Shown here: in pieces, positions 6,890 through 61,212 of the stretch | Layout: each line of letters begins with the position of its first letter | Numbering within the stretch: position 1 is the first letter of the stretch | From: an uncultured cyanobacterium | GTDB taxonomy: Bacteria > Cyanobacteriota > Cyanobacteriia > Phormidesmidales > Phormidesmidaceae | Assembly: GCA_963793265.1 (NCBI GenBank) | Contig: CAWBZI010000005.1 | Coordinates: forward strand, 128,001-192,000 | Reading direction: 5' to 3' | DNA length: 64,000 bases | Position numbers and translations under genes: made by a program | Notes under the pieces: generated by a model | The model's database searches: none | The model's input: the letters and a program-made list of their open reading frames with translations, nothing else | What the model was told of the DNA's origin: nothing

Positions 6890-8117
6890 TTAGCGATTGG
6901 GTGAGGGCATAAGGTGGACGGATGCTACGCCCTCGCGCAGACCTTTTTGTTCGTGAAGCCAGATGTTTTGAGCAAAGCGGAAGGGGCCGAAGGTGGTTGC
7001 GATCGCTTTAAATCCCCAGTAAGGCAGTCCCGGCTGCGAAATAAACGCAACCTTGCGCCACTCAGCTAGCTGCATTTTTTGTACTGCTTTGATTTCAGGC
7101 GATCGCTCTGCTTGAATAGCCTCAAACACGTCATCAACGGAATTATCGTCCAGACGCGCAAACTGATTAGCAACAACAATCGCATCGCGCAGACGCCATA
7201 TTGATGCCCTGCGCCCGATTAGGGGCCATTGGGTGAGCCGCATCGCCAATCAGCAACAAACCTGGAACCGTCCACGAGTCACAGCATCCAACCTGCACAT
7301 CTAAATATATTGGCCCTTCTAGCTCGTCTTTGTGCGCCCGGAAGTGACTAGCTAATTCTGCTGGTAAAGCCTGCGAAAACTCTTCTATCCAATCTTTCTC
7401 TTTCAACGCCGCGAGTCCACCCTTCTTATGAGCTTTCTTTTCAACAATCCAGCCAATCTGCAAACGCCCATCCCAGGAGGGATAAAACGCAAACTGCCGG
7501 TCGGGTTGCAAGCATGCGAAGAAAGGCGTTTCTGGTGATAGAGACTCGGGGGCCGGTAGCTTGAACCACAGCACATCAAATTCTGCATCGGACTTTTGAA
7601 GGTTTAGACCAGCTAGCTTACGCAAACAAGAGTAGCGGCCATCGCAGGCGATTACGCAGTCGGCGGCAAAGTCTCTAACTTCACCGTTTTGTGAGGCACG
7701 AAGTCCAACAACTTTATTCTGTTCATTTCGTAATAGTTCGTTTACCTGATAGCCTGTGTGGAGATGGAAGTTATGTAGCTGAGTGGCTTTTTGTGCGATC
7801 GCCTTCAGCAAAGCTCCCTGATCCATAATCTGCGTAGAGAGCCCATCATCCTCTGGCTCCTCTACCCGCATCCGCCGCCGCCCGCCTACATAAAAATCCC
7901 AAGATGTCAGCCGCCGCGATGGAATGCTCTCAAATGTCTCTTTCAATCCCATCTCGTACAGCGCTTCTAACCCAGCAGGCATGAGCCCTTCGCCTCTGAA
8001 GACGCGATCAAAAGCGGTTTCTTTTTCTATCAGGGCTACCTGATGCCCCTGTTGGGCTAGCAATAATGCTGTTGTTATACCGGCTGGGCCTGCGCCAGCG
8101 ATCGCAATGCGTTTCAA
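6890..8117 (-). pseudogene. FAD-dependent monooxygenase (UbiH/PHBH-like) split by a +1 frameshift near 7193
   Basis: GAGPAG, ACDGRYS and GDAAH.M.P..AQGINMA in one frame continue as LRDAIVVAN in another; removing one base (GCG T CTG CGC GAT) restores GINMALRDA. Confidence 0.75.
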
Positions 8118-8210
8118 AATAGTCCAGTCCCCAACAGTTCAGTAAAAACCTATTATTGAACGCATAGCAAGCCCTCTAGCATATTCAAAGGCTTGCTATA
8201 TGCCTCATGG

Positions 8211-8459
8211 TTACATCTTTACACGACGAGTCAACACAACCATGACTTCGTTGCGATCGCCCGTCGGCACAGGCTTACTCCAATCATTAGGCTCGGCGTA
8301 GTTAAGCTTGAACAAAGTGCGGATAGTCGATTGAACCGCATGAAGGGAGCCCCGTATGGTGTGGGTCACAATCTCGGGGCTATCGTCTGAGGGAAATGAG
8401 GAATTGCCGATAGGGGGAACGGTGGACGCAGAGGCGTCCGGGCGGGCTGAAGTAAGCAT
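8211..8459 (-). CDS. 82-aa hypothetical protein, copy 1 (paralog at 48651-48899)
   Basis: Near-identical second copy in the window; differences are mostly synonymous or conservative. Confidence 0.75.
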   Translation of the reverse strand: MLTSARPDASASTVPPIGNSSFPSDDSPEIVTHTIRGSLHAVQSTIRTLFKLNYAEPNDWSKPVPTGDRNEVMVVLTRRVKM

Positions 8460-8680
8460 AGTATTTTCCGTTGTTTTGAGGAAACCAGAACCCCACTAAA
8501 CCAGGCCACCCCGCGAAAATGTAGTGCAAATCGGGGTGGCTAGAGTAAAGTGACTCTAGCCGCCGGGACTGCGTGTTAGTCCGGGGGGTTAGCTATCGGT
8601 AGGTGCTAGTAACACCTATCGATAGTGCTGAGCGAAATCGAGTTCTGGTGAGAACGACTGTGATAGGCATCACAGCTTAG
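8460..8680 (-). ncRNA. Putative structured 5' leader RNA, copy 1
   Basis: At least five hairpins; differences from copy 2 cluster in loops; lies downstream of a sigma70-like promoter. Confidence 0.55.
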
Positions 8681-8685
8681 AGATG

Positions 8686-8714
8686 ACGATAATCTGATTC
8701 TTTGCTGCCGTCAA
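8686..8714 (-). promoter_or_regulatory. sigma70-type promoter TTGACG-N17-TATCGT, copy 1
   Basis: Conserved in both copies with a 17-bp spacer; homology between copies starts just upstream of the -35. Confidence 0.6.
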
Positions 8715-8888
8715 GTGGAATTAAAATAATTGGCGAACCAGAAGACGGCAGTAATTTTATAGCGAGCGGGTCAGCGACGAGTAATCGGGTTGAGTTCAGG
8801 CCCCCTTCTAATCTATCAAGATTGGGCGCTGTAAGATATGAGAAATAAAGGGGAGTACGATGCACGATTATTAACTTAGGAAATCGCA

Positions 8889-9131
8889 ATGCTTAAAAGC
8901 TATGAAGCAATCTATGAAAACGGTCAGGTAAAGTGGCTGGATGGTCAACCGCCCGTGAGTTCGGCGCGCATTATTGTAACGGTATTGGAAGAATCTGCCG
9001 GAAGTGATAGCGCGGTGGTTGAGAAGAATCAGCGACGTGTGCCGCCTGCCTCGATTGCAGGAAAGGGAAAAACGCTAGGTGATATTGTGAGCCCCATTGT
9101 TGCAGAAGACGACTGGGAGTGTCTGAAATAG
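8889..9131 (+). CDS. Putative antitoxin of the adjacent VapC
   Basis: Small ORF (EAIYENG..KW start; GKGK.LGDIV.P....DW end) overlapping a PIN toxin gene. Confidence 0.7.
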   Translation: MLKSYEAIYENGQVKWLDGQPPVSSARIIVTVLEESAGSDSAVVEKNQRRVPPASIAGKGKTLGDIVSPIVAEDDWECLK

Positions 9132-9520
9132 TAGTGCTGGATACGCATATTTGGTTTTGGATGATGACTCAGGAATTTGAGCGATTTCCTACTGACTGGC
9201 AAACGGAAATTAACATAGCCAAGCAAGTAGGCGTGTCGCCAGTATCTTGCTATGAGATTGCGTTGGCTAATAGCAAGGGCCGCTTAGAATTGCCTTGTGC
9301 TGCGGATGAGTGGTTTGAGGCTGCTTTAGAACCTACGGGTATAGATCTGTTGCCGTTGACGGCAGATATCTCCTTTAAAGCAGTAAATTTATCACCTATT
9401 CACAAAGATCCTTTTGACCGAATGATTATTGCAACAGCACTGAGCTACAAAGCTAGATTGGCCAGCGTAGACAGGCTATTCTCTCGATACGATGAGCTAA
9501 AGGACTGCTTAATGGTGTAG
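9119..9520 (+). CDS. vapC: VapC/PIN-domain toxin
   Basis: VLDTHIW, S..EI and HKDPFDRMIIATA PIN motifs. Confidence 0.9.
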   Translation: MSEIVVLDTHIWFWMMTQEFERFPTDWQTEINIAKQVGVSPVSCYEIALANSKGRLELPCAADEWFEAALEPTGIDLLPLTADISFKAVNLSPIHKDPFDRMIIATALSYKARLASVDRLFSRYDELKDCLMV

Positions 9521-25814: not shown

Positions 25815-26942
25815 ATGAAACGGATTATCTATGGTTCCTTGTCTGTACTCACTGCCGTTTGCACAGTGTTTGTATCAGCAAAAGCAGAAGTCTTCAATGC
25901 GAAAAACGAAGCAGCTACAGTTCAAGAAACAGCTCAAAAAGTACCTACCAAAGAGGCTTTGAGCGAGGCCGGTAGTCTTTTTGAGCTAGCTGAAGAAGAT
26001 TTTTCTAAAGGTTCACTTGCAAACATCAAACTGCCTAGTGCCCCCATCACAGGCGCTGCTGTTAGGCCACAGATCAGACCTAAAGCAGACCCTCGGCTAG
26101 AAGCGCAGCTTACCGAAGACGAGATGATTCAGGAGGCTCCTCTTGAATCAACGCCAGTCGTACCTGCGACACCAGGAACACCCAGTAAGCCTGATATGAC
26201 ACCACCAGCAGGTTCCCCCGAGCTAGAAGAGCCAGGCAACATCACACCAGTGTCGCCTAACGAGCCCGGACTTGACGATCCTGCACTCAACGATCCTGCA
26301 CTCGACGATCCTGCACTTGATGAACCAGGACTCAATCAACCTGAACTCGACGAGCCCGGACTTGACGACCCTACTCTAGAAGACCCTGCTCTAGACCAAC
26401 CAGGCTTGAGCGACCCAGTGCTTGACGATCCTGCTCTAGACGACTCTCCGGCTAGTGAAGATTTGCCCCCTATTCCTGAAAGCCCTGCACCTGGGTTCCC
26501 ACCGGCTGGCGTACCAGAAGATAGCACTTTTCCCGCTGAGCCTGTTGAACCACCGATCGAACCAGTAGAGCCGCTGCCGCCTTCTGATATAGAGCCGCTG
26601 CCATCAGACGATAATTTTGAAGATGGACTGGATGATAGTGCGGTGCCAGATAATGACTTTCCGGTAGGTGATACAGGTAGTGGAGATCGCCTCGTCGGAG
26701 AAGGCTTCACGGCGTTTCAGCTGTCATACCTGGCGCTTGGCGGTGGACTCAAAGAACAAGGCATTCCTGGTGGCTCGCTGCTAGTCAGTGCTTACAAACA
26801 GGGCGACATTTCAGCTGAAGACGTGGTAGAAGCGGGCGCAGTGGCTAATCGCCTGGGCACAAACGCTAACGATCAGGATGACTACACCAAAAGCGTCGAT
26901 AGATTCCTCAAGATCATTAGACGAGACGCCCGCACGAACTAG
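25815..26942 (+). CDS. Secreted Pro/acid-rich hypothetical protein with 5-aa (LDDPA/LDEPG) repeats
   Basis: Signal peptide, low-complexity middle, compact C-terminal domain. Confidence 0.75.
   Translation: MKRIIYGSLSVLTAVCTVFVSAKAEVFNAKNEAATVQETAQKVPTKEALSEAGSLFELAEEDFSKGSLANIKLPSAPITGAAVRPQIRPKADPRLEAQLTEDEMIQEAPLESTPVVPATPGTPSKPDMTPPAGSPELEEPGNITPVSPNEPGLDDPALNDPALDDPALDEPGLNQPELDEPGLDDPTLEDPALDQPGLSDPVLDDPALDDSPASEDLPPIPESPAPGFPPAGVPEDSTFPAEPVEPPIEPVEPLPPSDIEPLPSDDNFEDGLDDSAVPDNDFPVGDTGSGDRLVGEGFTAFQLSYLALGGGLKEQGIPGGSLLVSAYKQGDISAEDVVEAGAVANRLGTNANDQDDYTKSVDRFLKIIRRDARTN
26262..26445 (+). repeat. 15-bp coding tandem repeats (CTYGACGAYCCTGCA-like)
   Basis: About a dozen degenerate units visible. 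Confidence 0.8.
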
Positions 26943-37942: not shown

Positions 37943-39826
37943 ATGGACATCTTCGATTTTGGCACCACAAGCTTCTTAGACGGTAGCGATCTGAATATTG
38001 TTGAGGGACTCATAGAGAATGTAGATGACGGCGCGATCGCACTTGAGCCAACTTTAATCGCCGTGGATTTGGAGGATGGAGAAGGCAGCGGTAGTGACGA
38101 TCTTTCAGAGAGCCAGTTGAACAGCCTTAGAGAAGTATTGGGCGATCGCCCCTTCTCAGACGGCAGCTTTGTGCAATTCTTGAACGACTTAGGCAGCAGC
38201 GCGCTATCTAATTCAAACGTGGTGTTAGCGTTAGCGGCTATAGATGCTTCTGTTTTGACCAATAGCCAAGCAACAAACTGGCTATCTTCTCTGGTTGAGG
38301 CACTAGGCAGCGATGTCTTAGCTAATCGCAACTTTAGTCAGTTTATCTCTAGCCTGGATAGCGAAGTACTCACGAACGGCTCCTTTCTCAATTTCGTTAC
38401 CGACCTTAATCCTGGCCTATTTTTAGACGGGAGCTTTACCGAGTTTCTATCGGGTATTGGCGATGAGCTGCTTGTTAATGAGCGAGTTTTGGCAAATCTC
38501 AGCGGCCTTTCACCCAATTTTTTGAGCAACAGTAACTTTACTAACTTCCTTAGTAACCTGAGCGCAAACTTGCTCGCTGACGGCAGCTTTCTAAACTTTG
38601 TCTCTAGCCTGGACGACGACCTACTTGTTGACGAGACGTTTCTAACAGCATTTGGCGGACTTAATCCTGATATCTTAACCAGCGGCAGCTTCACAAATGT
38701 GCTCAGCCAGCTTGGCATTGAGCTAGTGAGTAATCCCACTTTTGCAAGCTTTGTCTCTAGTTTGGATCGCGACCTTTTTGACGACGGTAGCTTCGTCAGC
38801 TTCTTAACAGATCTCAACCCAAGTGTGCTGCTAGACGGCAGCTTTACTGAATTTCTATCTGGCTTAGATCCTCAGCTTTTAGCAGATAGAGCCTTCACTA
38901 CCGCATTAAATAACTTTGATACGTCGCTGCTAACGCAAGGCGTACTTACGCAATTTTTAGGCAGCGTTGGCCCCGAGCTAATCATCAATAGCGATTTTGT
39001 AAGTTTCGTCAATAGCTTGAGCGAACAGAGCTTACAGGACGCGAGCTTAATTAGCTTTTTAAGCAGCCTGAGTGATGAGGTTCTGAGCAATCGTGAATTT
39101 TTGGATGCGATCGCATCCCTCGATCCCGATCTCCTCAATCAGGCCGAATTCACTAACACGCTACTGGCCCTAGAAGAATCGGTACTACAAAGCGAAGACT
39201 TCTTATCCTTACTCAGTCAGCTAGATAGCAGCATTCTTAACGATCCAAACTTTCAAACACTGCTAATTGAAATTGACACCGCGCTGCTAGAGAACAGCAC
39301 CTTTGCCGATCTAGTCTCTAATTTGAGCACAACTGTTTTAACCGACCGCAGCTTCACGCAGGCGCTGAGTGAGCTGGATGCGGGTGCGATCGATAATTTT
39401 TCAAGTCTTCTTAGCAACCTCAACGAAGATATTCTCACCAGCGATGTCTTTTCGACGCTCATCAGATCCAACCCTAGTCTGTCAGATATAGATAGTTTGC
39501 TATCGCAGCTAGGCAATCTCTTCTCTGATTCCTCTACGCTATCTGCTCTCACCGATGAATCCGGTGAGGCTGATACGCTCACCGCAGGCGGTCTGTTAGG
39601 GCTAGACGCTGGCGATGTAGAGATTGATGAGGCGCTGCTGCTGACGAGCGGCGACAGTTTCTTGACCAGCGCAGACGTAGAACCGCTGGGAGGTTTAGCG
39701 ACTGATACGCTGATTGATGTCAGTGGTGGAACGGTTGATATAAACGCTACCGATTCTACGCTGCAACTGCCTGAGTGGATGAGCCAAACGGAAACAACGC
39801 CGTTTGAAGCGCCTACGATTGAGTAA
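37943..39826 (+). CDS. Acidic 17-residue tandem-repeat protein of unknown function
   Basis: 627-aa ORF with about 25 repeats of the DGSFTEFLSGLDPQLLA type. Confidence 0.75.
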   Translation: MDIFDFGTTSFLDGSDLNIVEGLIENVDDGAIALEPTLIAVDLEDGEGSGSDDLSESQLNSLREVLGDRPFSDGSFVQFLNDLGSSALSNSNVVLALAAIDASVLTNSQATNWLSSLVEALGSDVLANRNFSQFISSLDSEVLTNGSFLNFVTDLNPGLFLDGSFTEFLSGIGDELLVNERVLANLSGLSPNFLSNSNFTNFLSNLSANLLADGSFLNFVSSLDDDLLVDETFLTAFGGLNPDILTSGSFTNVLSQLGIELVSNPTFASFVSSLDRDLFDDGSFVSFLTDLNPSVLLDGSFTEFLSGLDPQLLADRAFTTALNNFDTSLLTQGVLTQFLGSVGPELIINSDFVSFVNSLSEQSLQDASLISFLSSLSDEVLSNREFLDAIASLDPDLLNQAEFTNTLLALEESVLQSEDFLSLLSQLDSSILNDPNFQTLLIEIDTALLENSTFADLVSNLSTTVLTDRSFTQALSELDAGAIDNFSSLLSNLNEDILTSDVFSTLIRSNPSLSDIDSLLSQLGNLFSDSSTLSALTDESGEADTLTAGGLLGLDAGDVEIDEALLLTSGDSFLTSADVEPLGGLATDTLIDVSGGTVDINATDSTLQLPEWMSQTETTPFEAPTIE

Positions 39827-46293: not shown

Positions 46294-46367
46294 GGATCCT
46301 TAGCTCAGTTGGATAGAGCAATCGCCTTCTAAGCGATCGGTCACTGGTTCGAATCCAGTAGGATCCG
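46294..46367 (+). tRNA. trnR-UCU: tRNA-Arg (anticodon TCT)
   Basis: Acceptor GGATCCT/AGGATCC, D-arm GCTCAGTTGGATAGAGC, anticodon arm ATCGC-CTTCTAA-GCGAT, T-arm GGTTCGAATCC. Confidence 0.97.
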
Positions 46368-46422: not shown

Positions 46423-46809
46423 CTATGAAAGCTGCCATAGTTTTTTGCAGTCATAGTCCTGAAAGGCTGAGTCGCGAGTAACGATAGTGACTGCCTCAGT
46501 CCGGCTCTGAGCAATGATCAGCCGATCAAAGGGATCTTTGTGATGCTGAGGAAGCTGCTCTAAATCTAGAATATGAGCAACGGTGATTGGTAAAAGCCTA
46601 ATGCCGTTAGATTGATGATGGTTCACCATTTCAGCTAGCGGCATATTCAGGTTAAGTTTTCCTATCTGCGTCTTAATTTGAATTTCCCAAAGTGAGACTA
46701 GGCTTACCAGCAGCTCTGAACGTTGCAGTAGCTCAAGCGTAGTAGCAGGAATGCGACTCGGCTCTCTGTCCCACCAGATAAATGTGTGCGTATCAAGCAG
46801 TAACTTCAT
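46423..46809 (-). CDS. vapC: VapC/PIN-domain toxin
   Basis: MKLLLDTH, SLWEI, HKDPFDRLIIAQ. Confidence 0.9.
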   Translation of the reverse strand: MKLLLDTHTFIWWDREPSRIPATTLELLQRSELLVSLVSLWEIQIKTQIGKLNLNMPLAEMVNHHQSNGIRLLPITVAHILDLEQLPQHHKDPFDRLIIAQSRTEAVTIVTRDSAFQDYDCKKLWQLS

Positions 46810-47014
46810 TTTCTCCCAGCCAGAATGAATCTGGCAGGGGGGCATCAAAATCGTCTGCCATCCAGTAGGGAGTGTCTTTGTGGAGTCCAGGAGTGGGGGA
46901 AGTGGGCGTGATGGGGTTTCGCTGACGGAGGAAGGCAGCAAAGTTGAGAACTTCTTGCTGCTGTTCGGGTGTCAGCGATCGCACTTCTGCGATTAAAGCT
47001 TGCTCGATACTCAT
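46793..47014 (-). CDS. DUF2281-type antitoxin
   Basis: L.PEQQQEVL.FA.FL and WMADDFDAPLP; overlaps the toxin start. Confidence 0.8.
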   Translation of the reverse strand: MSIEQALIAEVRSLTPEQQQEVLNFAAFLRQRNPITPTSPTPGLHKDTPYWMADDFDAPLPDSFWLGENEVTA

Positions 47015-47088
47015 AGTGTCTGCCTTCGTGACGTGCATTGAGATTATTGTAGCCCTACGCTGAGGCGAGACAGCCGCATAGCAGATAC

Positions 47089-47289
47089 TCACTGCTGAGC
47101 GATTGGAGAGGGAATGGGTTTTCCCTCTGCGGTAGCAGCCTCTAGCCAGGCTTGTTTGGCAATGGCTAGCTCTTGCAAGGCTTCGATAGGGGTTTTGCCA
47201 AAGGCGGAGCAGTAGGTAAGGTCGGGAATATCAGCAATATAGCCTTTGTCGTCTTCGCTATAAAAGATGTTGATGTGATGGTCTTTCAT
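47089..47289 (-). CDS. HicB-like antitoxin without adjacent hicA
   Basis: YS.ED.GYIADIPDL..CSAFG.TP.EAL...W......G..IP.P. Confidence 0.8.
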   Translation of the reverse strand: MKDHHINIFYSEDDKGYIADIPDLTYCSAFGKTPIEALQELAIAKQAWLEAATAEGKPIPSPIAQQ

Positions 47290-47462
47290 GGCTAGTCGTC
47301 TAAAAATAGTAAGGACTATGTTATCTCTACACCTATGCTATCAAGCTGTTGATCGATCCAGGAATTGGCACTTTTCTCATCGGTTTCGATGGCCCGTTCT
47401 GCGCCAATTTTTAGCATTTTCTATATAGTTGCTCAAATTGCGCATGAGGGAAACTCAACAGT

Positions 47463-47915
47463 ATGCTTACTTCAGCTCGCCCGGACGCCTCTGCGTCCGC
47501 CGTTCCCCCTGTCGGCAATTCGTACAAAGCTCTGCTGAAATATGAAAACATATTTGAGGTGTACTGGGTGACGAGCGATTTTCCCTCTGACGATATCTAT
47601 CTGAAAAGCCTATGTGAGCTTTATACAGAGATTGAAGTCGTAGAGATTAAGAAATACCTCGAAGAATGGAGTGCTGGAACATACGCAACGACCGCGCAAG
47701 GTGTGCTAGACCACGCTATTCGAAAAGGGATTGAACCGATAAAATACTTAAGGCGATGCCACAATTTCAATCGCAAAAGAGCGCGAAGAGTGCCTCCAAA
47801 GGGCTACCGACAGGATGGTTCAGCGGTTTACCGAAAGGATGGACAGTATTTGATCGTTCGATTAGATCAGTTCGGGATTGAGAAAGTTGTAAGTTTTGGT
47901 ATTTCCCAGGAGTAA
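47463..47915 (+). CDS. Hypothetical protein: first 20 aa shared with the 82-aa ORF, C-terminal toxin-like domain
   Basis: MLTSARPDASA..VPP.GNS N-terminus; basic C-terminus W..GTY......LDHA..KG.....YL....NF. Confidence 0.6.
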   Translation: MLTSARPDASASAVPPVGNSYKALLKYENIFEVYWVTSDFPSDDIYLKSLCELYTEIEVVEIKKYLEEWSAGTYATTAQGVLDHAIRKGIEPIKYLRRCHNFNRKRARRVPPKGYRQDGSAVYRKDGQYLIVRLDQFGIEKVVSFGISQE

Positions 47916-47917
47916 AG

Positions 47918-48334
47918 GTGATGACAATAGATGATGGCAGCCTCGAAATTAAGAGAAAACATGTTGCTCAGGTGCTGTCGCAGCTCACAATTGATTATCA
48001 GCTTGCGAAGGCTGAGCGTAGGCTTTTATCTGAATCTTTAGGTAGCGAAGATACGGCTTTTACTCTTATTGAAGAGCTAGAGTTGCTGACTGTGGGAATT
48101 CGTGGATGGGGATGTCAGTTTTCGGCAGCTACCAGCATAGAGAATACAAGGGAGGCGATCGCACAGCTAAGAGGTCTTAGGGTCTTCCAAGTACCGAATA
48201 TTACTGAGTTTTATTTTGACGAGTCAACACAGTCCGAGCGATTGAAGCTTTACATCAGTCTGCTAGACTATCTACGCTTGTTGTTGCTTGAGTACTTAGA
48301 GGCGATCGCTTCCGAAGAATCTATTGCCGCGTAG
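47918..48334 (+). CDS. Acidic helical hypothetical protein, possible immunity/antitoxin
   Basis: Starts 2 bp after the upstream stop; Glu/Leu-rich. Confidence 0.6.
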   Translation: MMTIDDGSLEIKRKHVAQVLSQLTIDYQLAKAERRLLSESLGSEDTAFTLIEELELLTVGIRGWGCQFSAATSIENTREAIAQLRGLRVFQVPNITEFYFDESTQSERLKLYISLLDYLRLLLLEYLEAIASEESIAA

Positions 48335-48391
48335 CTCGCACAATCGTTTTATTGCACAGCGCTTTTCTCTCCACATTCACATAATTTCCAC

Positions 48392-48420
48392 TTGACGGCA
48401 GCAAGGAATCAGATTATCGT
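48392..48420 (+). promoter_or_regulatory. sigma70-type promoter TTGACG-N17-TATCGT, copy 2
   Basis: Same boxes and spacing as copy 1. Confidence 0.6.
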
Positions 48421-48426
48421 CATCTC

Positions 48427-48650
48427 TAAGCTGTGATGCCTATCACAGTTGTTCTTGCCAGAACTCGATTTCGCTCAGCACTATCGATAGGTGGTGGAAC
48501 ACCTACCGATAGCTAACCCCCCGGACTAACCAGCAGTCTAGGCGGCTAGAGTCACTTTACTCTAGCCACCCCGATTTGCACTACATTTTCGCGGGGTGGC
48601 TTGGTTTAGTGGGGTTCTGGTTTCCTCAAAAATAAAGGAAATTCAACGTT
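48427..48650 (+). ncRNA. Putative structured 5' leader RNA, copy 2
   Basis: Hairpins CTGTGAT/ATCACAG, GTTCT/AGAAC, CTATCG.TAGGTG/CACCTA.CGATAG, GGCTAGAGT/ACTCTAGCC, GCCACCCCG/CGGGGTGGC. Confidence 0.55.
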
Positions 48651-48899
48651 ATGCTTACTTCAGCTCGCCCGGACGCCTCTGCGCCCACCGTTCCCCCTGT
48701 CGGTAATTCTTCGTTTCCCTCAGGCGATAGCCCCGAGATCGTCACTCACACCATACGCGGCTCCCTTCATGCGGTTCAAGCGACCATTCGCACTTTGTTC
48801 AAGCTCAACTATGCTGAGCCTAACGATTGGAGTAAGCCTGTGCCGACGGGCGATCGCAACGAAGTCATGGTTGTGTTGACCCGTCGTGTAAGACTGTAG
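48651..48899 (+). CDS. 82-aa hypothetical protein, copy 2
   Basis: Paralog of 8211-8459; AAAGGA RBS-like sequence upstream. Confidence 0.75.
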   Translation: MLTSARPDASAPTVPPVGNSSFPSGDSPEIVTHTIRGSLHAVQATIRTLFKLNYAEPNDWSKPVPTGDRNEVMVVLTRRVRL

Positions 48900-48969
48900 C
48901 GCTAGCCATACAGCGAGTTATCCAATGGCGATACGCTAAAACACGAAGGCAAATTGCCAAAAGCCTTAC

Positions 48970-49179
48970 ATGATCTGCCAAATCACCTGCATGATTCGGC
49001 AGATCATCAATACGATCCGTCGAATCATGCAGGTGATTTGCCGAACCATCAACACGATCTGCCGGATCACAAGGATGATTTGCCACCTCATCAACACGAT
49101 TTGCCAGATCATGAAAGTGATCTGTTGAAGTCGCTACGTACTTTGACAAAGTACGTGGGCGATCTGCCTTTCGTCTTTG
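48970..49179. repeat. 21-bp-periodic array of degenerate dyads (YGAT-N7-ATCA), about 10 units
   Basis: Units start at 48970, 48991, 49012, 49033, 49054, 49075, 49096, 49117, 49138 and 49159. Confidence 0.85.
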
Positions 49180-49315
49180 GCAATAAGTAGTCTTACAGAT
49201 AAGGCAATGTAATTTTTGTTGCTTTTGTCGGGCACTGTAATCACAGGCAGAGAACCTGTGAGCTTAGCGCGCTAGGGTTTCTGCACAACAACATTACTAC
49301 CTGGGCACATCCACT

Positions 49316-51394: not shown

Positions 51395-51483
51395 AGGTGA
51401 TGCTCAAGAAAGTTTGAGCTTAGCACCGTTACCTGACGCTGGTTATCGAAGTGATAGATACTCGCTGCCCAATAAAGGCATTA

Positions 51484-51645
51484 GGGAGCTGCGCTCAAAT
51501 AAAGTACCGGCAAACCGACAAATATTGCCCTGGGCATAGCGTGCTAAGCCCCTACGTCACCGTCAATTTCTGTAGGGGCTTAGCACTGCTATGCCCGAGG
51601 CAATGAACAGCGCTATCAGCGGTACTTTATTTAGACGCATGTCCC
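51484..51645 (+). mobile_element. 162-bp MITE, copy 1 (25-bp imperfect TIRs, TTA target duplication, internal GTAG-REP-like doublet)
   Basis: Identical inverted copy at 60870-61031; TIRs GGGAGCTGCGCTCAAATAAAGTACC / GGGACATGCGTCTAAATAAAGTACC; TTA on both sides. Confidence 0.85.
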
Positions 51646-54513
51646 TTATAGCTGAGTCTCTATAAACTCTCGCAGTTGCTTGAGTTGAAACGCTTTCGCA
51701 AACTTCAGCAAGGGCTTGGTAAATCCAGCGCATTCTGGGTGGCTGCTTTGGATATCCTCAGCCTGCTTTACCAATTGATTTATCAGCCCCTTGCGGCTGA
51801 GGTCATGAAGCTTTTGAAGATCTTCTAGCGGCGGTAGAACAATCTCTGAAGGATCTGTTTGACTGCTTGAGGCATTGAGATTACCTGCTAGCTGAGAGGT
51901 TCCCGGCTGATCGCCCGCTCGCTCATAGCGCCATTCCAAGTTGAGTTGCTTTTTGATGGCTAAAAACAGACTGTCGGCCTGTACCGGCTTAGGAATGAAC
52001 TCATCTGCACCCGCGCTAAAACTCTTGTATTCATCGGCAGCAAAAACGCTCGCTGATGAAACAATAATAGGTACGCTCTTCAGTGGTGCTGGCAGTTCTC
52101 TAACATGCTTAATCATCTCGTAGCCGCCCATCACAGGCATAGCAATGTCGGTAATAATCAAATCTGGTGAATGGTCTTTGGCTTTTTGCAATCCTTCTTC
52201 GCCGTTGTGCGCCTCAATTACCCTAAAGCCGACAGGCTCTAGCAAATGGGTCACCACCGATCGGTTTTCCCAACGGTCGTCAACTACTAGCACAGTGCGC
52301 TCAGCCCCATCAAAGCCTACAATCGTCCCCTGGGGCGCGCTGATAGAAGAGGTCATCCAATCCCCGGCTTCGGTCGCGGTTATATCAAACCAGAACAGGC
52401 TACCCTGGTTAGGCTCGCTGCGTACTTCTAGCGTTGTATCCATCAAAGCGACGATTTTCGACGTAATTGCTAGCCCAAGCCCCGTGCCTTCTGATTGTTT
52501 ACGAGTATCGCCCACCTGCTCAAAGGGTAAAAAGATTTTCTCTATCTGCGCTTCTGACATGCCAATGCCAGTATCTTCAATCTGAAACCGCAGGTTATAA
52601 GAAACTGGCGACTCGGTTGGGTGATGCTGGCTACTACCGGCTAAGTGAGTGGCGGGTTGAGCTTTGACAATAAATTTTACGTGGCCTGCATCTGTAAACT
52701 TGATCGCGTTGCCTAAAAGGTTAATAAGCACCTGGCGCAATCGCTTTTCATCAGCATAGATACCCGTTGGCAGTATCCCATCGACTTCGTAAATGAAGTC
52801 AACCTGTTTTTGCTCTGCTTTAATCCTACAAATTTCAGCAATGCCCTGTAGAAAAGAAGAGAAATGAAACTCATTAGGATGAAGATCCATCTTTTGCGCT
52901 TCAATTTTAGAGAGATCAAGAATGTCGTTGATTAAGGTCAGCAGATGCGCCCCGCACTGGTTGATAATGCCAGCACCCTTTTGTTCTTTTTCAGGAAGCT
53001 GCTTTGATCGCAGCAAAATTTGAGCGTATCCCAAGATTCCGTTTAACGGTGTGCGCAGCTCGTGGCTCATGTTTGCTAAGAAGTCACTTTTAGCGCTATT
53101 GGCAACTTCAGCAAGTTCTTTCGCTTCTTTAAGCTCAGCAGTGCGCTGTTCTACACGAATCTCTAGCGCTTCGTTACTATCAGCAAGCGCTGTAAAAGAC
53201 TCTCGTAGCTGCTGAGCCATCCGATTAAAGGCAGAAGAGAGTACGTTTAGCTCACTAACCGCAGAACTTTTTACGGTTTGATTGAGGTTGCCGCTGGCAA
53301 TAGATTCTGAGGCTTCGCTGAGCTGGCGAATGGGCTGGGAGATCCAGCGGGAGGTGAGATAGCCCAAGATGAGCGCGATCGCTAAAGACATCAGGCACAA
53401 AACAATCGTCGTTCGCGTGTTTTTGTTGATTTGGCCCATAAAGTCTGACTCTGGCACCACGACCACAACCAGCCAGTCTAACCCTGTACCCTCGCCCCAG
53501 GGCATTACCTGCAAAAACTGACGCTCACCATCAAGCCTAAACGTAAGCTGCTCGGACGACTGAATATCACCCAGTCCACCAAAATTCTCAACAAGCTGAT
53601 CGACAGCGGCCCGCGCTATTGAGCTGTCTATTTCTGAAACGTGAAGCCTGACAGGCAGATCGTCAACAATATCGAAGGGCTGGTGTTTGCCTGAGCTGGC
53701 AACGAGCATACCATCTCGCTCCATCACAAAGGTGCGGCTGTTGGGGCTGATGCGTAAGTCTCTTAAAAAGTCGCTGATTTGGAGTAAAAGCTGCTCGACG
53801 CCGATGGCACCGATGAGCTGACCGTCAGCGTCATAAATCGGGCTGGCGTAGGCGATCGCGAGCGGAAAAGGGTTAATTTCCCAGCTATATACCGAACTCC
53901 ACACGGGCTTTTTGGCTGCGATCGCCTCTGGATACCAGCTCTCCGATTGAAAGTCATAAACATCAGGATCAAAGGCGAGCTTCGTTCGATTCCCCTCACT
54001 GTCCGACTTGTAGGCATACTGATTATTGTTGCCGCGCTTTGCCGGGGCAATCTCACTGATAACCACGCTATCCACGCTAGGGTCGTAGCCCGAGTCAGCA
54101 TAGTATCCAGACTCAGTGCCAAACATCACAAAGCCAACGTCATGCACCTGTCTGTTTTGCCAGAACAAATCGCCTAGCTGCCCGACCTCCTCAGGATTCA
54201 ACAGCCCCATGCGAAACAAGTTAACGTTGTTCTGCACGATTTTAGCAGGCGCAGACATATAGCCGTCGAGGTGCAGCGAGATTCGTTTGCTCGCTTCTTC
54301 TTCTAGCTGAGCTGCCAAATCTTCGACCGCCTCGCGACCGTTGCGTAAGGATAAGTATCCGGTAATCCCGACGGCTGCAAATATTTGGATGGCAAACGGA
54401 ACGACTAAAATCAGCCTTAGCGGTAGCGCTCTACGGCCACCATCAGGCTGCCGCCCGTGCAAGCTTTGTTTTTGAGCTTCAAGCGGCCTGTCGGAAATAT
54501 GAGACTGTTTCAT
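51646..54513 (-). CDS. Hybrid sensor histidine kinase (TM-dCache-TM-HAMP-HisKA-HATPase-REC)
   Basis: [41 protein letters not shown]...DIAMP.M.G. Confidence 0.92.
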
Positions 54514-59975: not shown

Positions 59976-60863
59976 ATGGCACCATCAGCATTAAGCCGAC
60001 AGCAGCCTACTATGATTGGGTTTACGGCCATTTTGATGTGGGCGACATTGGGGCTACTGACCAAGCTAAGCGGGGAGATACCGCCCTTTCAGCTCACGGC
60101 CATGTCGTTTACGATCGCCTTTACAATCGGGATAGCGACTTGGATACGAAGTGGGGAGAATCCACTGCACTTGATAAAGCTGCCTAAGAGAGTTTGGGCT
60201 ACCGGAATTACCGGACTATTCGGCTATCATCTTTTTTACTTTGTTGCTTTGGCTAATGCGCCTGTCGTTGAGGCCGGATTGATTGCCTACTTGTGGCCTT
60301 TGTTGATTGTGTTGCTTTCTGCTTTGTTGCCGGGTGAGCGGCTGAGGTGGTTTCATGTGGTGGGTGCGATCGCTGGCTTCATCGGCGTGTCTCTATTGGT
60401 CACAAAAGGCCAGTCCTTAACTCTCGATCCTCAATACACCATAGGCTATGTAGCAGCCTTCTCCTGCGCCCTCATCTGGTCAATCTATTCAATCGTATCT
60501 CGTCAGTTCGGCACGATTTCAACCAGCGCAGTCGGTGGATTTTGTGGGGCAACAGCTATTCTCTCCTGGGTTTTCCACGTTCTGTTTGAAGCGACTGTTT
60601 GGCCTGTAGGCTGGCAGTGGGTGGCCGTTATCTGCTTAGGGCTTGGGCCAGTCGGGCTCGCCTTTTTCACCTGGGACTACGGCGTCAAGCATGGCAACAT
60701 CAAAGTGTTAGGGCTCCTTTCCTATCTCTCTCCTTTACTGTCCACTATCTTGCTTATTGTCTGTGGGCTTGCTGAATCTAGCTGGTTTGTGTGGTTGGGC
60801 TGTTTGCTCATAGTCGGCGGCGCACTGCTGGGCGTTCTAGATTTTTTTAAGTCAGATATTTAG
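59976..60863 (+). CDS. EamA/DMT exporter (YddG-like)
   Basis: PPFQL.A, GLFGYH..YF.AL, IAYLWPLLIV, AFF.WDYG.K.G. Confidence 0.88.
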   Translation: MAPSALSRQQPTMIGFTAILMWATLGLLTKLSGEIPPFQLTAMSFTIAFTIGIATWIRSGENPLHLIKLPKRVWATGITGLFGYHLFYFVALANAPVVEAGLIAYLWPLLIVLLSALLPGERLRWFHVVGAIAGFIGVSLLVTKGQSLTLDPQYTIGYVAAFSCALIWSIYSIVSRQFGTISTSAVGGFCGATAILSWVFHVLFEATVWPVGWQWVAVICLGLGPVGLAFFTWDYGVKHGNIKVLGLLSYLSPLLSTILLIVCGLAESSWFVWLGCLLIVGGALLGVLDFFKSDI

Positions 60864-60869
60864 AGCTAA

Positions 60870-61031
60870 GGGACATGCGTCTAAATAAAGTACCGCTGAT
60901 AGCGCTGTTCATTGCCTCGGGCATAGCAGTGCTAAGCCCCTACAGAAATTGACGGTGACGTAGGGGCTTAGCACGCTATGCCCAGGGCAATATTTGTCGG
61001 TTTGCCGGTACTTTATTTGAGCGCAGCTCCC
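60870..61031 (-). mobile_element. 162-bp MITE, copy 2
   Basis: Exact reverse complement of 51484-51645; TAA on both sides. Confidence 0.85.
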
Positions 61032-61212
61032 TAATTGCAAAGACGGCTACGACGAAGAGGCGCGGAGTCGAGACTTTTATAAGTCGGGTGATGACAAAAT
61101 TGTTTTTTGTAAGGCGATCGCATCTCTACCATCAAACTGAGCAACGATAGCAATATCATTTACAATTAAGTCTCAGCATAGTATCGAATCAGTAAAGATA
61201 ACGCTTGCCACG

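Follow-up and report, generated by a model that had tools for sequence, protein, structure and literature searches.

What kind of element is formed by two inverted copies, about 40 kb apart, of a promoter, a highly structured leader and a short open reading frame (ORF) is the question raised by a stretch of 64,000 nucleotides (nt) of an uncultured cyanobacterium of the family Phormidesmidaceae (assembly GCA_963793265.1, contig CAWBZI010000005.1, positions 128,001 to 192,000; hereafter the window). The original prediction, made from this stretch alone, described the pair (copy A, 8211..8721, and copy B, 48386–48899) and took the leader for a cis-regulatory or antisense RNA controlling a small, possibly toxic protein of 82 amino acids (aa). 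The analysis presented here points to a complete monocistronic transcription unit whose leader probably acts in cis as a translational switch, a reading to which a probability of roughly 0.65 is assigned.

Copies A and B correspond in three collinear inverted-repeat segments located in the window by a repeat finder: 8212–8460 / 48650–48898 (249 nt, 91% identity), 8463–8605 / 48500–48642 (143 nt, 93%) and 8613–8720 / 48386–48493 (108 nt, 96%). Aligned, the copies become homologous about 5 nt 5′ of the −35 box, and the homology decays some 20–30 nt past the stop codon. The inverted duplication is therefore borne out by the repeat finder and the alignments, and the promoter, structured leader and 82-aa ORF proposed for both copies by promoter matches, folding z-scores and the ORFs themselves; the leaders fold with z = −5.6 (A) and −5.7 (B) relative to shuffles, with none of 200 shuffles equal. 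Of the substitutions between the copies originally assigned to loops, TTACTAG versus GTGGAA does occupy the terminal loop of hairpin P2, but CACC versus TGCC falls in a linker at the outer edge of helix P1, outside any hairpin loop. The original prediction also missed a partial third copy at 47444–47521 and a family of at least 23 copies.

The window pair is two of these at least 23 copies of a self-contained promoter/leader/ORF unit. Compared with its own genome (5.68 Mb, 7 contigs) by BLAST, copy A yields four full-length copies (100, 92, 92 and 83% identity) and several diverged ones; tblastn with the 82-aa protein yields 18 loci with a conserved C-terminal domain, which form two subfamilies, “YAEPNDWS...EVMVVLTRRV” and “YAETVLWS...IITPAQGEAMSLLRK”. 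Alignment of the 420 nt upstream of these loci revealed a promoter and a multi-hairpin leader, with visible compensatory changes, in 17 of the 18; the remaining locus, C4:698717, has no start codon within its open frame and looks like a 5′-truncated remnant. The 17 leaders were used to build a covariance model (R1; 174 positions, 46 pairs), which finds at least 23 copies in the genome at 94–172 bits, a lower bound, as 150 of 970 first-look candidates were scored. The six copies that R1 added are each followed by a subfamily-2 ORF, and one of them, C2:476114, with a TTG start and a divergent C-terminus, may be decaying. A promoter of the form TTGNNN-N16-18-TANNNT lies upstream in 110 of 114 units, and the units appear to be monocistronic.

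The leader consists of a 5′ hairpin (P0), which is present at this position in other copies with a different sequence, and a core of about 175 nt, in which a long interrupted closing helix (P1) leads to a five-way junction with four further hairpins (P2–P5). The junction contains conserved sequences, GCUAACCC after P2 and AGCCACCCC/GGGGUGGCU at P4/P5. Compensatory changes support this fold strongly. Covariation across homologues had been proposed as a check in the original prediction, and by pair counting on alignments it is strong: RNAalifold detects compensatory changes in 25 of 33 pairs among the 17 paralogues. In 47 sequences from 11 genomes, 83.6% of cells are paired compared with 28–43% in slid controls, and 37 of the 46 pairs show double changes; for 73 sequences collected from other genomes through the protein, the figures are 89.5%, 29–49% and 36 of 46, both alignments having been fitted to R1 and hence being biased toward its structure. 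None of 500 shuffles was as good in either set. The signal is considered real because the slid controls pair poorly and the double changes are many. The sense strand is indicated by the conservation of the promoter, by the pairing of a P1 strand with the ribosome-binding site and by a modest excess of G–U pairs over A–C mismatches (251 versus 152 in one alignment). A further hairpin of 6 bp, GGNCGC N4 GCGNCC, lies 21–36 nt inside the ORF; it is 89% paired in the 73 sequences, compared with 30–58% in slid controls, and has double changes in four of its six pairs, evidence that counts for less because the hairpin sits in coding sequence.

No Rfam family accounts for this structure, which the original prediction had likewise been unable to assign to a known RNA family. 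Among the 4227 families of Rfam 15, a scan of the whole window at the gathering threshold matched only a tRNA, region 8100–8950 gave chance-level matches only at E up to 10 (Lambda_thermo, 16.6 bits; DABA-DC-AT, 12.8 bits), and for seven diverse members scanned at E up to 1 the RNA strand was free of matches. The T-box model had no match in the same region at E up to 10, and the downstream genes are not aminoacyl-tRNA-related. A full-text literature search found no description of this RNA element. A 2026 survey of cyanobacterial RNA structures was anchored on 931 KEGG orthologue groups (PMC12873609) and would for that reason not cover this gene family. The RNA family is put forward as new, and as a candidate for a known functional kind, namely a cis-acting translational switch or an orphan riboswitch.

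In lineages having the RNA, its coupling to the small-protein gene is near-obligate. In its own genome, the ORF family lies downstream of the RNA in 23 of 23 copies. In an even sample of the phylum (18 candidates per genome scored, strict filters), R1 matches occur in 10 of 150 other genomes belonging to five GTDB families, and 20 of the 24 RNA loci there precede a homologous small ORF; overall, the same protein family follows in 43 of the 47 RNA-anchored loci. At L062 and L075 the RNA is followed by no ORF, and at L053 and L056 by an unrelated one, that of L056 running into a contig end once 16 similar residues have passed. Close relatives of the protein are encoded in more than 505 stretches of species-representative genomes, including those of Leptolyngbyaceae, Phormidesmis, Leptothoe, Oscillatoria sp. 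CS-180 and several metagenome-assembled genomes. At the best 80 of these protein-anchored loci, the RNA lies directly upstream on the same strand in 73, and the seven loci without it (L080, L096, L105, L108, L118, L121 and L152) have a contig end 6–256 nt upstream. A profile of the protein domain collects 845 representatives at 50% identity, 346 of them with E ≤ 1e-10, and places the family in 50 of 400 other sampled cyanobacterial genomes. The RNA is restricted, among the genomes searched, to some filamentous cyanobacterial families.

The unrelated gene of L053, in genome G002, encodes a hypothetical protein of 197 aa, and an intact leader copy is situated about 130 nt upstream of it. The protein is well conserved in Coleofasciculaceae-type cyanobacteria, and no Pfam or NCBIfam family was found for the 197/212-aa protein. 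As a second family regulated by the RNA, this gene was rejected: the RNA is upstream in only one of nine loci, and seven others are without it. A different layout is seen at those of the loci L157–L176 (other cyanobacterial genomes) that lack the five-way junction; there, the homologous ORF follows a promoter, one long hairpin, a tract of CCCC and a ribosome-binding site. The hairpin is often built on the HIP1 word GCGATCGC, or on GUAAGGUGAUC...GAUCACCUUAC, and the leader may have here a simpler or an ancestral form.

The proposal of a switch comes from the segment between the 3′ strand of P1 and the AUG, which forms a long hairpin in nearly all of the 27 units folded. In this hairpin, the P1 3′ strand and the UUUCC following it pair with the Shine–Dalgarno (SD) sequence, and both also pair with a near-copy of the P1 5′ strand just before the AUG; in subfamily 2, the pairing extends to the AUG itself instead of the near-copy strand. 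When each helix is forced in the full leader, P1 and this masking helix overlap by 7–14 nt. The predicted energies of the two states lie within 4 kcal/mol of each other in 15 of 24 units, and the minimum-energy structure is the P1 state in some units and the masked state in others. Three-way changes, in which both strands of P1 and the SD-proximal strand are altered, are found in single units, for example L141, L140 and L084. Over 108 units, the duplex of the P1 3′ strand with the SD region has a mean predicted energy of −18.3 kcal/mol for cognate, −14.5 for non-cognate and −9.4 for shuffled SD regions, and over the 75 units of subfamily 1 the cognate value is −19.6 versus −16.6 for non-cognate regions (cognate better in 60 of the 75), the contrast between cognate and non-cognate being inflated by kinship among the copies; each of the 75 reuses at least five of the nine P1 3′-strand bases. 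The two helices exclude each other, are near-equal in predicted stability and co-vary.

A sigma-70-type promoter would thus give a transcript that begins with P0 and continues through the five-way-junction leader and the ribosome-binding site into the ORF for a dimeric protein. In the ON state, the 3′ strand of P1 would pair with its 5′ strand, so that the junction is folded and the SD site and AUG are free; in the OFF state, the same strand would pair with the SD/AUG region and mask the start site. Translational ON switches are built in this way, the closing of P1 freeing the ribosome-binding site, and whatever stabilises the folded junction would therefore turn translation on. The fold with its covariation, the coupling to the ORF and the relation of the two helices are computational results, whereas the operation of the switch in vivo and its trigger are inferred. 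The claim of a cis-regulatory structured leader tied to a small ORF is upheld by the fold, the covariation and the coupling to the ORF.

Several points weigh against the switch. Apart from its reliance on predicted energies and the kinship already mentioned, the states of 9 of the 24 units, both window copies included, are more than 4 kcal/mol apart, and the excess of G–U pairs over A–C mismatches shrinks to 133 versus 112 in a more divergent alignment. In the window copies and C1:209k, the SD-proximal strand is shortened and P1 is predicted to be ahead by 12–14 kcal/mol; the alternative helix is degenerate in copy A and weak in copy B, where the P1 state is predicted to be more stable by 13.8 and 12.2 kcal/mol, respectively. 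These features suggest that the window copies and C1:209k may be largely constitutive, that is, mostly ON with a weakened OFF helix, and the switch may be vestigial in precisely the window copies.

As regards the trigger of the switch, the committed guess, a tentative one, is that the encoded protein or its paralogues bind the folded junction as feedback; it is favoured by the joint inheritance of RNA and gene and by the constraint on the whole leader sequence. On the other side, no recognised RNA-binding family or fold was found for the small protein by Pfam, NCBIfam and fold searches. At protein loci of distant lineages, R1-type RNA occurs in only 1 of 20, with filters off, the others having a single hairpin, which indicates that the elaborate junction is lineage-restricted and a structured 5′ end general. 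Furthermore, the RNA precedes the unrelated 197-aa gene in G002 (L053/L177) and probably also in G095 (L056, at the contig end).

The occurrence in G002 is as expected of a portable sensor, and it speaks for a somewhat doubtful alternative, a classical riboswitch, in which the five-way junction would be the aptamer for a small molecule or ion, the ligand would stabilise P1 and free the ribosome-binding site, and the small protein would either be the effector or bind that ligand as well. This is consistent with a multi-helix junction that resembles an aptamer and has conserved sequences (GCUAACCC, AGCCACCCC/GGGGUGGCU), and with a platform resembling known translational ON switches; ACT-type ligand-binding domains are also among the weak best fold matches of the protein, at a Z below 5 that is not significant. 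However, almost every copy controls one uncharacterised gene family, with at least 20 copies per genome; the loci examined have no metabolic or transport gene downstream, and the gene context suggests no ligand. If true, this would be a new riboswitch class, amplified to more than 20 copies per genome, each gating one member of a family of small ACT-like dimers, and the cell would read one signal via a battery of paralogous sensor–effector modules.

The small protein is supported, at the level of prediction, as a beta-alpha-beta homodimer. The AlphaFold model, based on 42 aligned relatives, has a disordered N-terminal tail followed by a strand (residues 29–37), a helix (39–51) and a second strand (72–80), with a predicted local distance difference test (pLDDT) score of about 90. 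A complex test of the homodimer scored 0.84 compared with 0.01 for the best control; among proteins of solved structure, 20 of 30 pairs and 1 of 23 single chains attain that mark. Three runs share at least 94% of contacts, with a partner pLDDT of 89 or more, and the first strands of the two chains pair antiparallel. A Foldseek search of the PDB gave no match at E ≤ 0.001, and VIA-align wide gave no specific relative (best Z 4.8, not significant), the weak matches being generic ferredoxin-like, ACT or CutA-type halves. Pfam and NCBIfam have no family for the small protein, or for the ORFs at 47463, 47918 and 49316. In the ESM Atlas, the protein falls only among cyanobacterial clusters without given names; the automatic name “peptide ABC transporter substrate-binding protein” of one cluster was set aside, as it looks like an annotation artefact. 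The relatives among the profile representatives are nearly all stand-alone proteins of 60–185 aa. The only long protein among the best 150 representatives, P0197 (580 aa), combines TIR and a WD40 fragment with the small-protein domain at the C-terminus; this single case may reflect either a genuine fusion or read-through in gene calling.

The rates at which the copies have diverged bear on several other explanations. The four closest copies are old duplicates, with 23–55% divergence at four-fold degenerate sites; copies A and B differ at 11 of 47 such sites (23%), and a recent duplication was accordingly rejected. The proteins of these four differ at 2–19 of 81–82 residues, and the leaders diverge by 2–6% over 215 positions outside the P2/P3 loops and by 43–60% in those loops. 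Purifying selection acts strongly on the protein and more strongly still on the leader, while the P2 and P3 terminal loops drift at about the neutral rate. The sharp homology edges at the promoter and past the stop codon, without transposon ends, are explained by selection on old duplicates.

Such edges and the many dispersed copies could otherwise suggest a mobile element or a recent segmental duplication, such as a miniature inverted-repeat transposable element (MITE) or a fragment of an insertion sequence, an explanation that is hardly credible. As originally noted, terminal repeats and target duplications are absent: a repeat search of both units found no inverted or direct repeats flanking copies A and B, and the only inverted repeats inside the units are the RNA hairpins. 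Inspection of ORF listings, rather than Pfam, showed no transposase-like ORF within ±1.5 kb of the 23 copies. Silent-site divergence of 23–55% with a near-unchanged leader instead marks the edges as borders of selection, and the paralogues beyond the closest copies have only 25–55% protein identity to copy A.

The same divergences speak against ligand-free control, a rather unlikely alternative: a simple timer or thermometer would not require a 175-nt junction held at 2–6% while silent sites reach 23–55%. Under such control, co-transcriptional folding order, temperature or RNase processing would set translation; P1 might form first and allow a burst of translation before refolding or cleavage to the masked state, or the leader might serve mainly to stabilise the mRNA. 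5′ hairpins and such features are typical of mRNAs under folding or decay control, for example hok and tisB, and here the two states are near-isoenergetic, P0 stands at the predicted 5′ end and a conserved hairpin lies just inside the ORF.

It is quite unlikely that the leader instead acts in trans, either by itself as a stable non-coding RNA or within a ribonucleoprotein, sharing its promoter with the protein partner and using the P2/P3 loops as specificity determinants. The RNA and protein genes do duplicate as one unit, the predicted dimer of the protein is symmetric, and the loops differ far more than the remaining leader; but their divergence is similar to that of four-fold degenerate sites and is therefore explained by neutrality. 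A terminator scan of both copies found no terminator between RNA and ORF, and cis action is indicated by the pairing conserved between P1 and the SD/AUG region. The scan of copy A also found no terminator elsewhere, including at the hairpin past the stop codon, which is possibly the 3′ end of the unit.

Regulation in cis by the leader is distinct from the antisense or type I toxin–antitoxin control that had been suggested by analogy with phage P1 c4-icd. A toxin–antitoxin-like or antisense-controlled locus of any of these kinds (type I, type III or P1 c4-icd-like) is highly improbable; what recalls it is the layout, a small ORF behind a structured RNA, and the genes beside both window copies, identified by Pfam as PIN ORFs (9119–9520 and 46423–46941), a DUF2281 ORF (46793–47092) and a HicB-like ORF (47089–47289). 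The toxin–antitoxin neighbours are present beside both copies as first reported, but inspection of ORF listings, again rather than Pfam, found no recurring neighbour gene on either side of the 23 copies, so that these genes look incidental. The type I reading fails on the protein, whose 82 aa include no long hydrophobic stretch and for which AlphaFold predicts a soluble beta-alpha-beta domain. The antisense reading fails on the loops: in their pairing, those of P2, P3, P4 and P5 show no preference for the downstream 130 nt of their own unit, where translation starts, over those of other units (p = 0.37–0.74), and complementarity to any other part of the own unit, pseudoknots included, gave no cognate signal. 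The one antisense promoter-like match (9 of 12 positions) is at chance level, two matches being found and 1.0 ± 1.1 expected from shuffles. With regard to type III, neither unit contains a family of direct repeats, and Pfam and NCBIfam revealed no nuclease family.

The features of the units in the window are given in Table 1. The partial third copy was detected as a 78-nt direct repeat of 48632–48709 (90% identity). It retains exactly the in-ORF hairpin and ribosome-binding region of the unit, and it is fused in frame with an otherwise unrelated 150-aa ORF at 47463–47915. This ORF is a chimeric gene that arose by partial duplication, as its ribosome-binding region and its first 20 codons are those of the small-protein family.

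Table 1. Features of copies A and B and of the partial third copy, in window coordinates.
Feature	Position	Strand	Description
Copy A, promoter	8686..8714	−	−35 TTGACG, 17-nt spacer, −10 TATCGT; predicted transcription start near 8679
Copy A, P0	8658..8675	−	5′-terminal hairpin, CUGUGAUG CC UAUCACAG
Copy A, core leader RNA	8479..8653	−	P1 and hairpins P2–P5, five-way junction; covariance-model score 171.4 bits
Copy A, expression platform	8460..8494	−	P1 3′ strand (GGGGUUCUGG), UUUCC, linker, weak ribosome-binding site GGAAA
Copy A, ORF	8211..8459	−	82 aa; variable N-terminal tail and conserved beta-alpha-beta domain (residues ~29–80)
Copy A, in-ORF hairpin	8424..8439	−	GGACGC CUCU GCGUCC; 21–36 nt past the A of AUG
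Copy A, hairpin past stop codon	8164..8199	−	ATAGCAAGCC / GGCTTGCTAT; without U-tract
Copy B, promoter	48392..48420	+	TTGACG, 17-nt spacer, TATCGT; predicted transcription start near 48427
Copy B, P0	48431..48448	+	5′-terminal hairpin
Copy B, core leader RNA	48453..48626	+	P1–P5; covariance-model score 170.4 bits
Copy B, expression platform	48612..48650	+	P1 3′ strand, UUUCCU, linker, AGGAAA
Copy B, ORF	48651..48899	+	82 aa; 6 amino-acid differences from copy A
Copy B, in-ORF hairpin	48671..48686	+	GGACGC CUCU GCGCCC; one A–C mismatch
Partial third copy	47444..47521	+	Ribosome-binding region, AUG, first 20 codons and in-ORF hairpin; without upstream leader RNA

Other features of the window are side observations. 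The 150-aa ORF and an adjacent 138-aa ORF (together 47463–48334, + strand), neither with a Pfam or NCBIfam match, adjoin the HicB-like/DUF2281/PIN cluster, with a tRNA gene (46294–46367) 1.1 kb away. Just past copy B, region 48954–49190 is of low complexity on both strands, with several open frames and repeated HDLPNH / DRVD-like units. Directly downstream of copy A lies an FAD-binding monooxygenase-like ORF (PF01494; 7167–8117, − strand), which ends at 316 aa with a C-rich tail, is overlapped by an ORF at 6890–7249 and may be frameshifted or truncated. An inverted-repeat pair of 182 nt (51480–51661 / 60854–61035, 97% identity) is a long imperfect palindrome with ends AAATAAAGTACCG / CGGTACTTTATTT and is MITE-like; it appears to be dispersed, because its translation (..QIKYRQTDKYCP..) recurs near the genome locus L040. 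Two tandem arrays, at 26260–26454 (15-nt units, nine overlapping 45-nt copies) and 38333–38786 (51-nt units, six copies, 61–74% identity), are presumably repeats inside coding genes.

Among known systems, the add adenine riboswitch of Vibrio vulnificus, a translational ON switch with a three-way junction of about 70 nt, is similar in having a sensor closed by P1, the 3′ strand of which alternatively pairs with the SD/AUG region. The present leader differs in its five-way junction of about 175 nt, in having no Rfam match and in occurring in at least 20 copies per genome, nearly always before the same small-protein family. In the autoregulatory leaders of ribosomal-protein and similar operons, a structured 5′ leader precedes a small-protein gene and usually mediates repression; the likeness is that RNA and gene are inherited and duplicated together. 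Here, however, the platform predicts activation if the folded form were bound by the protein, whose RNA binding is putative, and the family is a large paralogous expansion, not a single essential gene. Like orphan structured RNAs such as raiA and yjdF, the element is defined by covariation and tied to one gene family, but it is outside Rfam 15, lineage-restricted and provided with an unusually clear expression platform. With P1 c4-icd and type I toxin–antitoxin loci it shares a structured RNA upstream of a small ORF in one transcript; in contrast to them, its loops are not complementary to the downstream sequence, the control helix is intramolecular, and this unit shows no antisense promoter match above chance level and encodes no hydrophobic toxin.

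The case shows that the sharp borders of an apparent repeat can be the selection borders of a whole transcription unit and not the ends of a mobile element. It also adds a large structured RNA family outside Rfam with strong covariation, the ON and OFF helices of which are clear enough for direct mutation. This leader fronts an equally uncharacterised protein family that reaches two dozen copies in single genomes. Identification of the trigger would reveal either a riboswitch ligand not previously described or an RNA–protein feedback module of a new kind, and in both cases a widespread family of small cyanobacterial proteins would gain its first assigned function.

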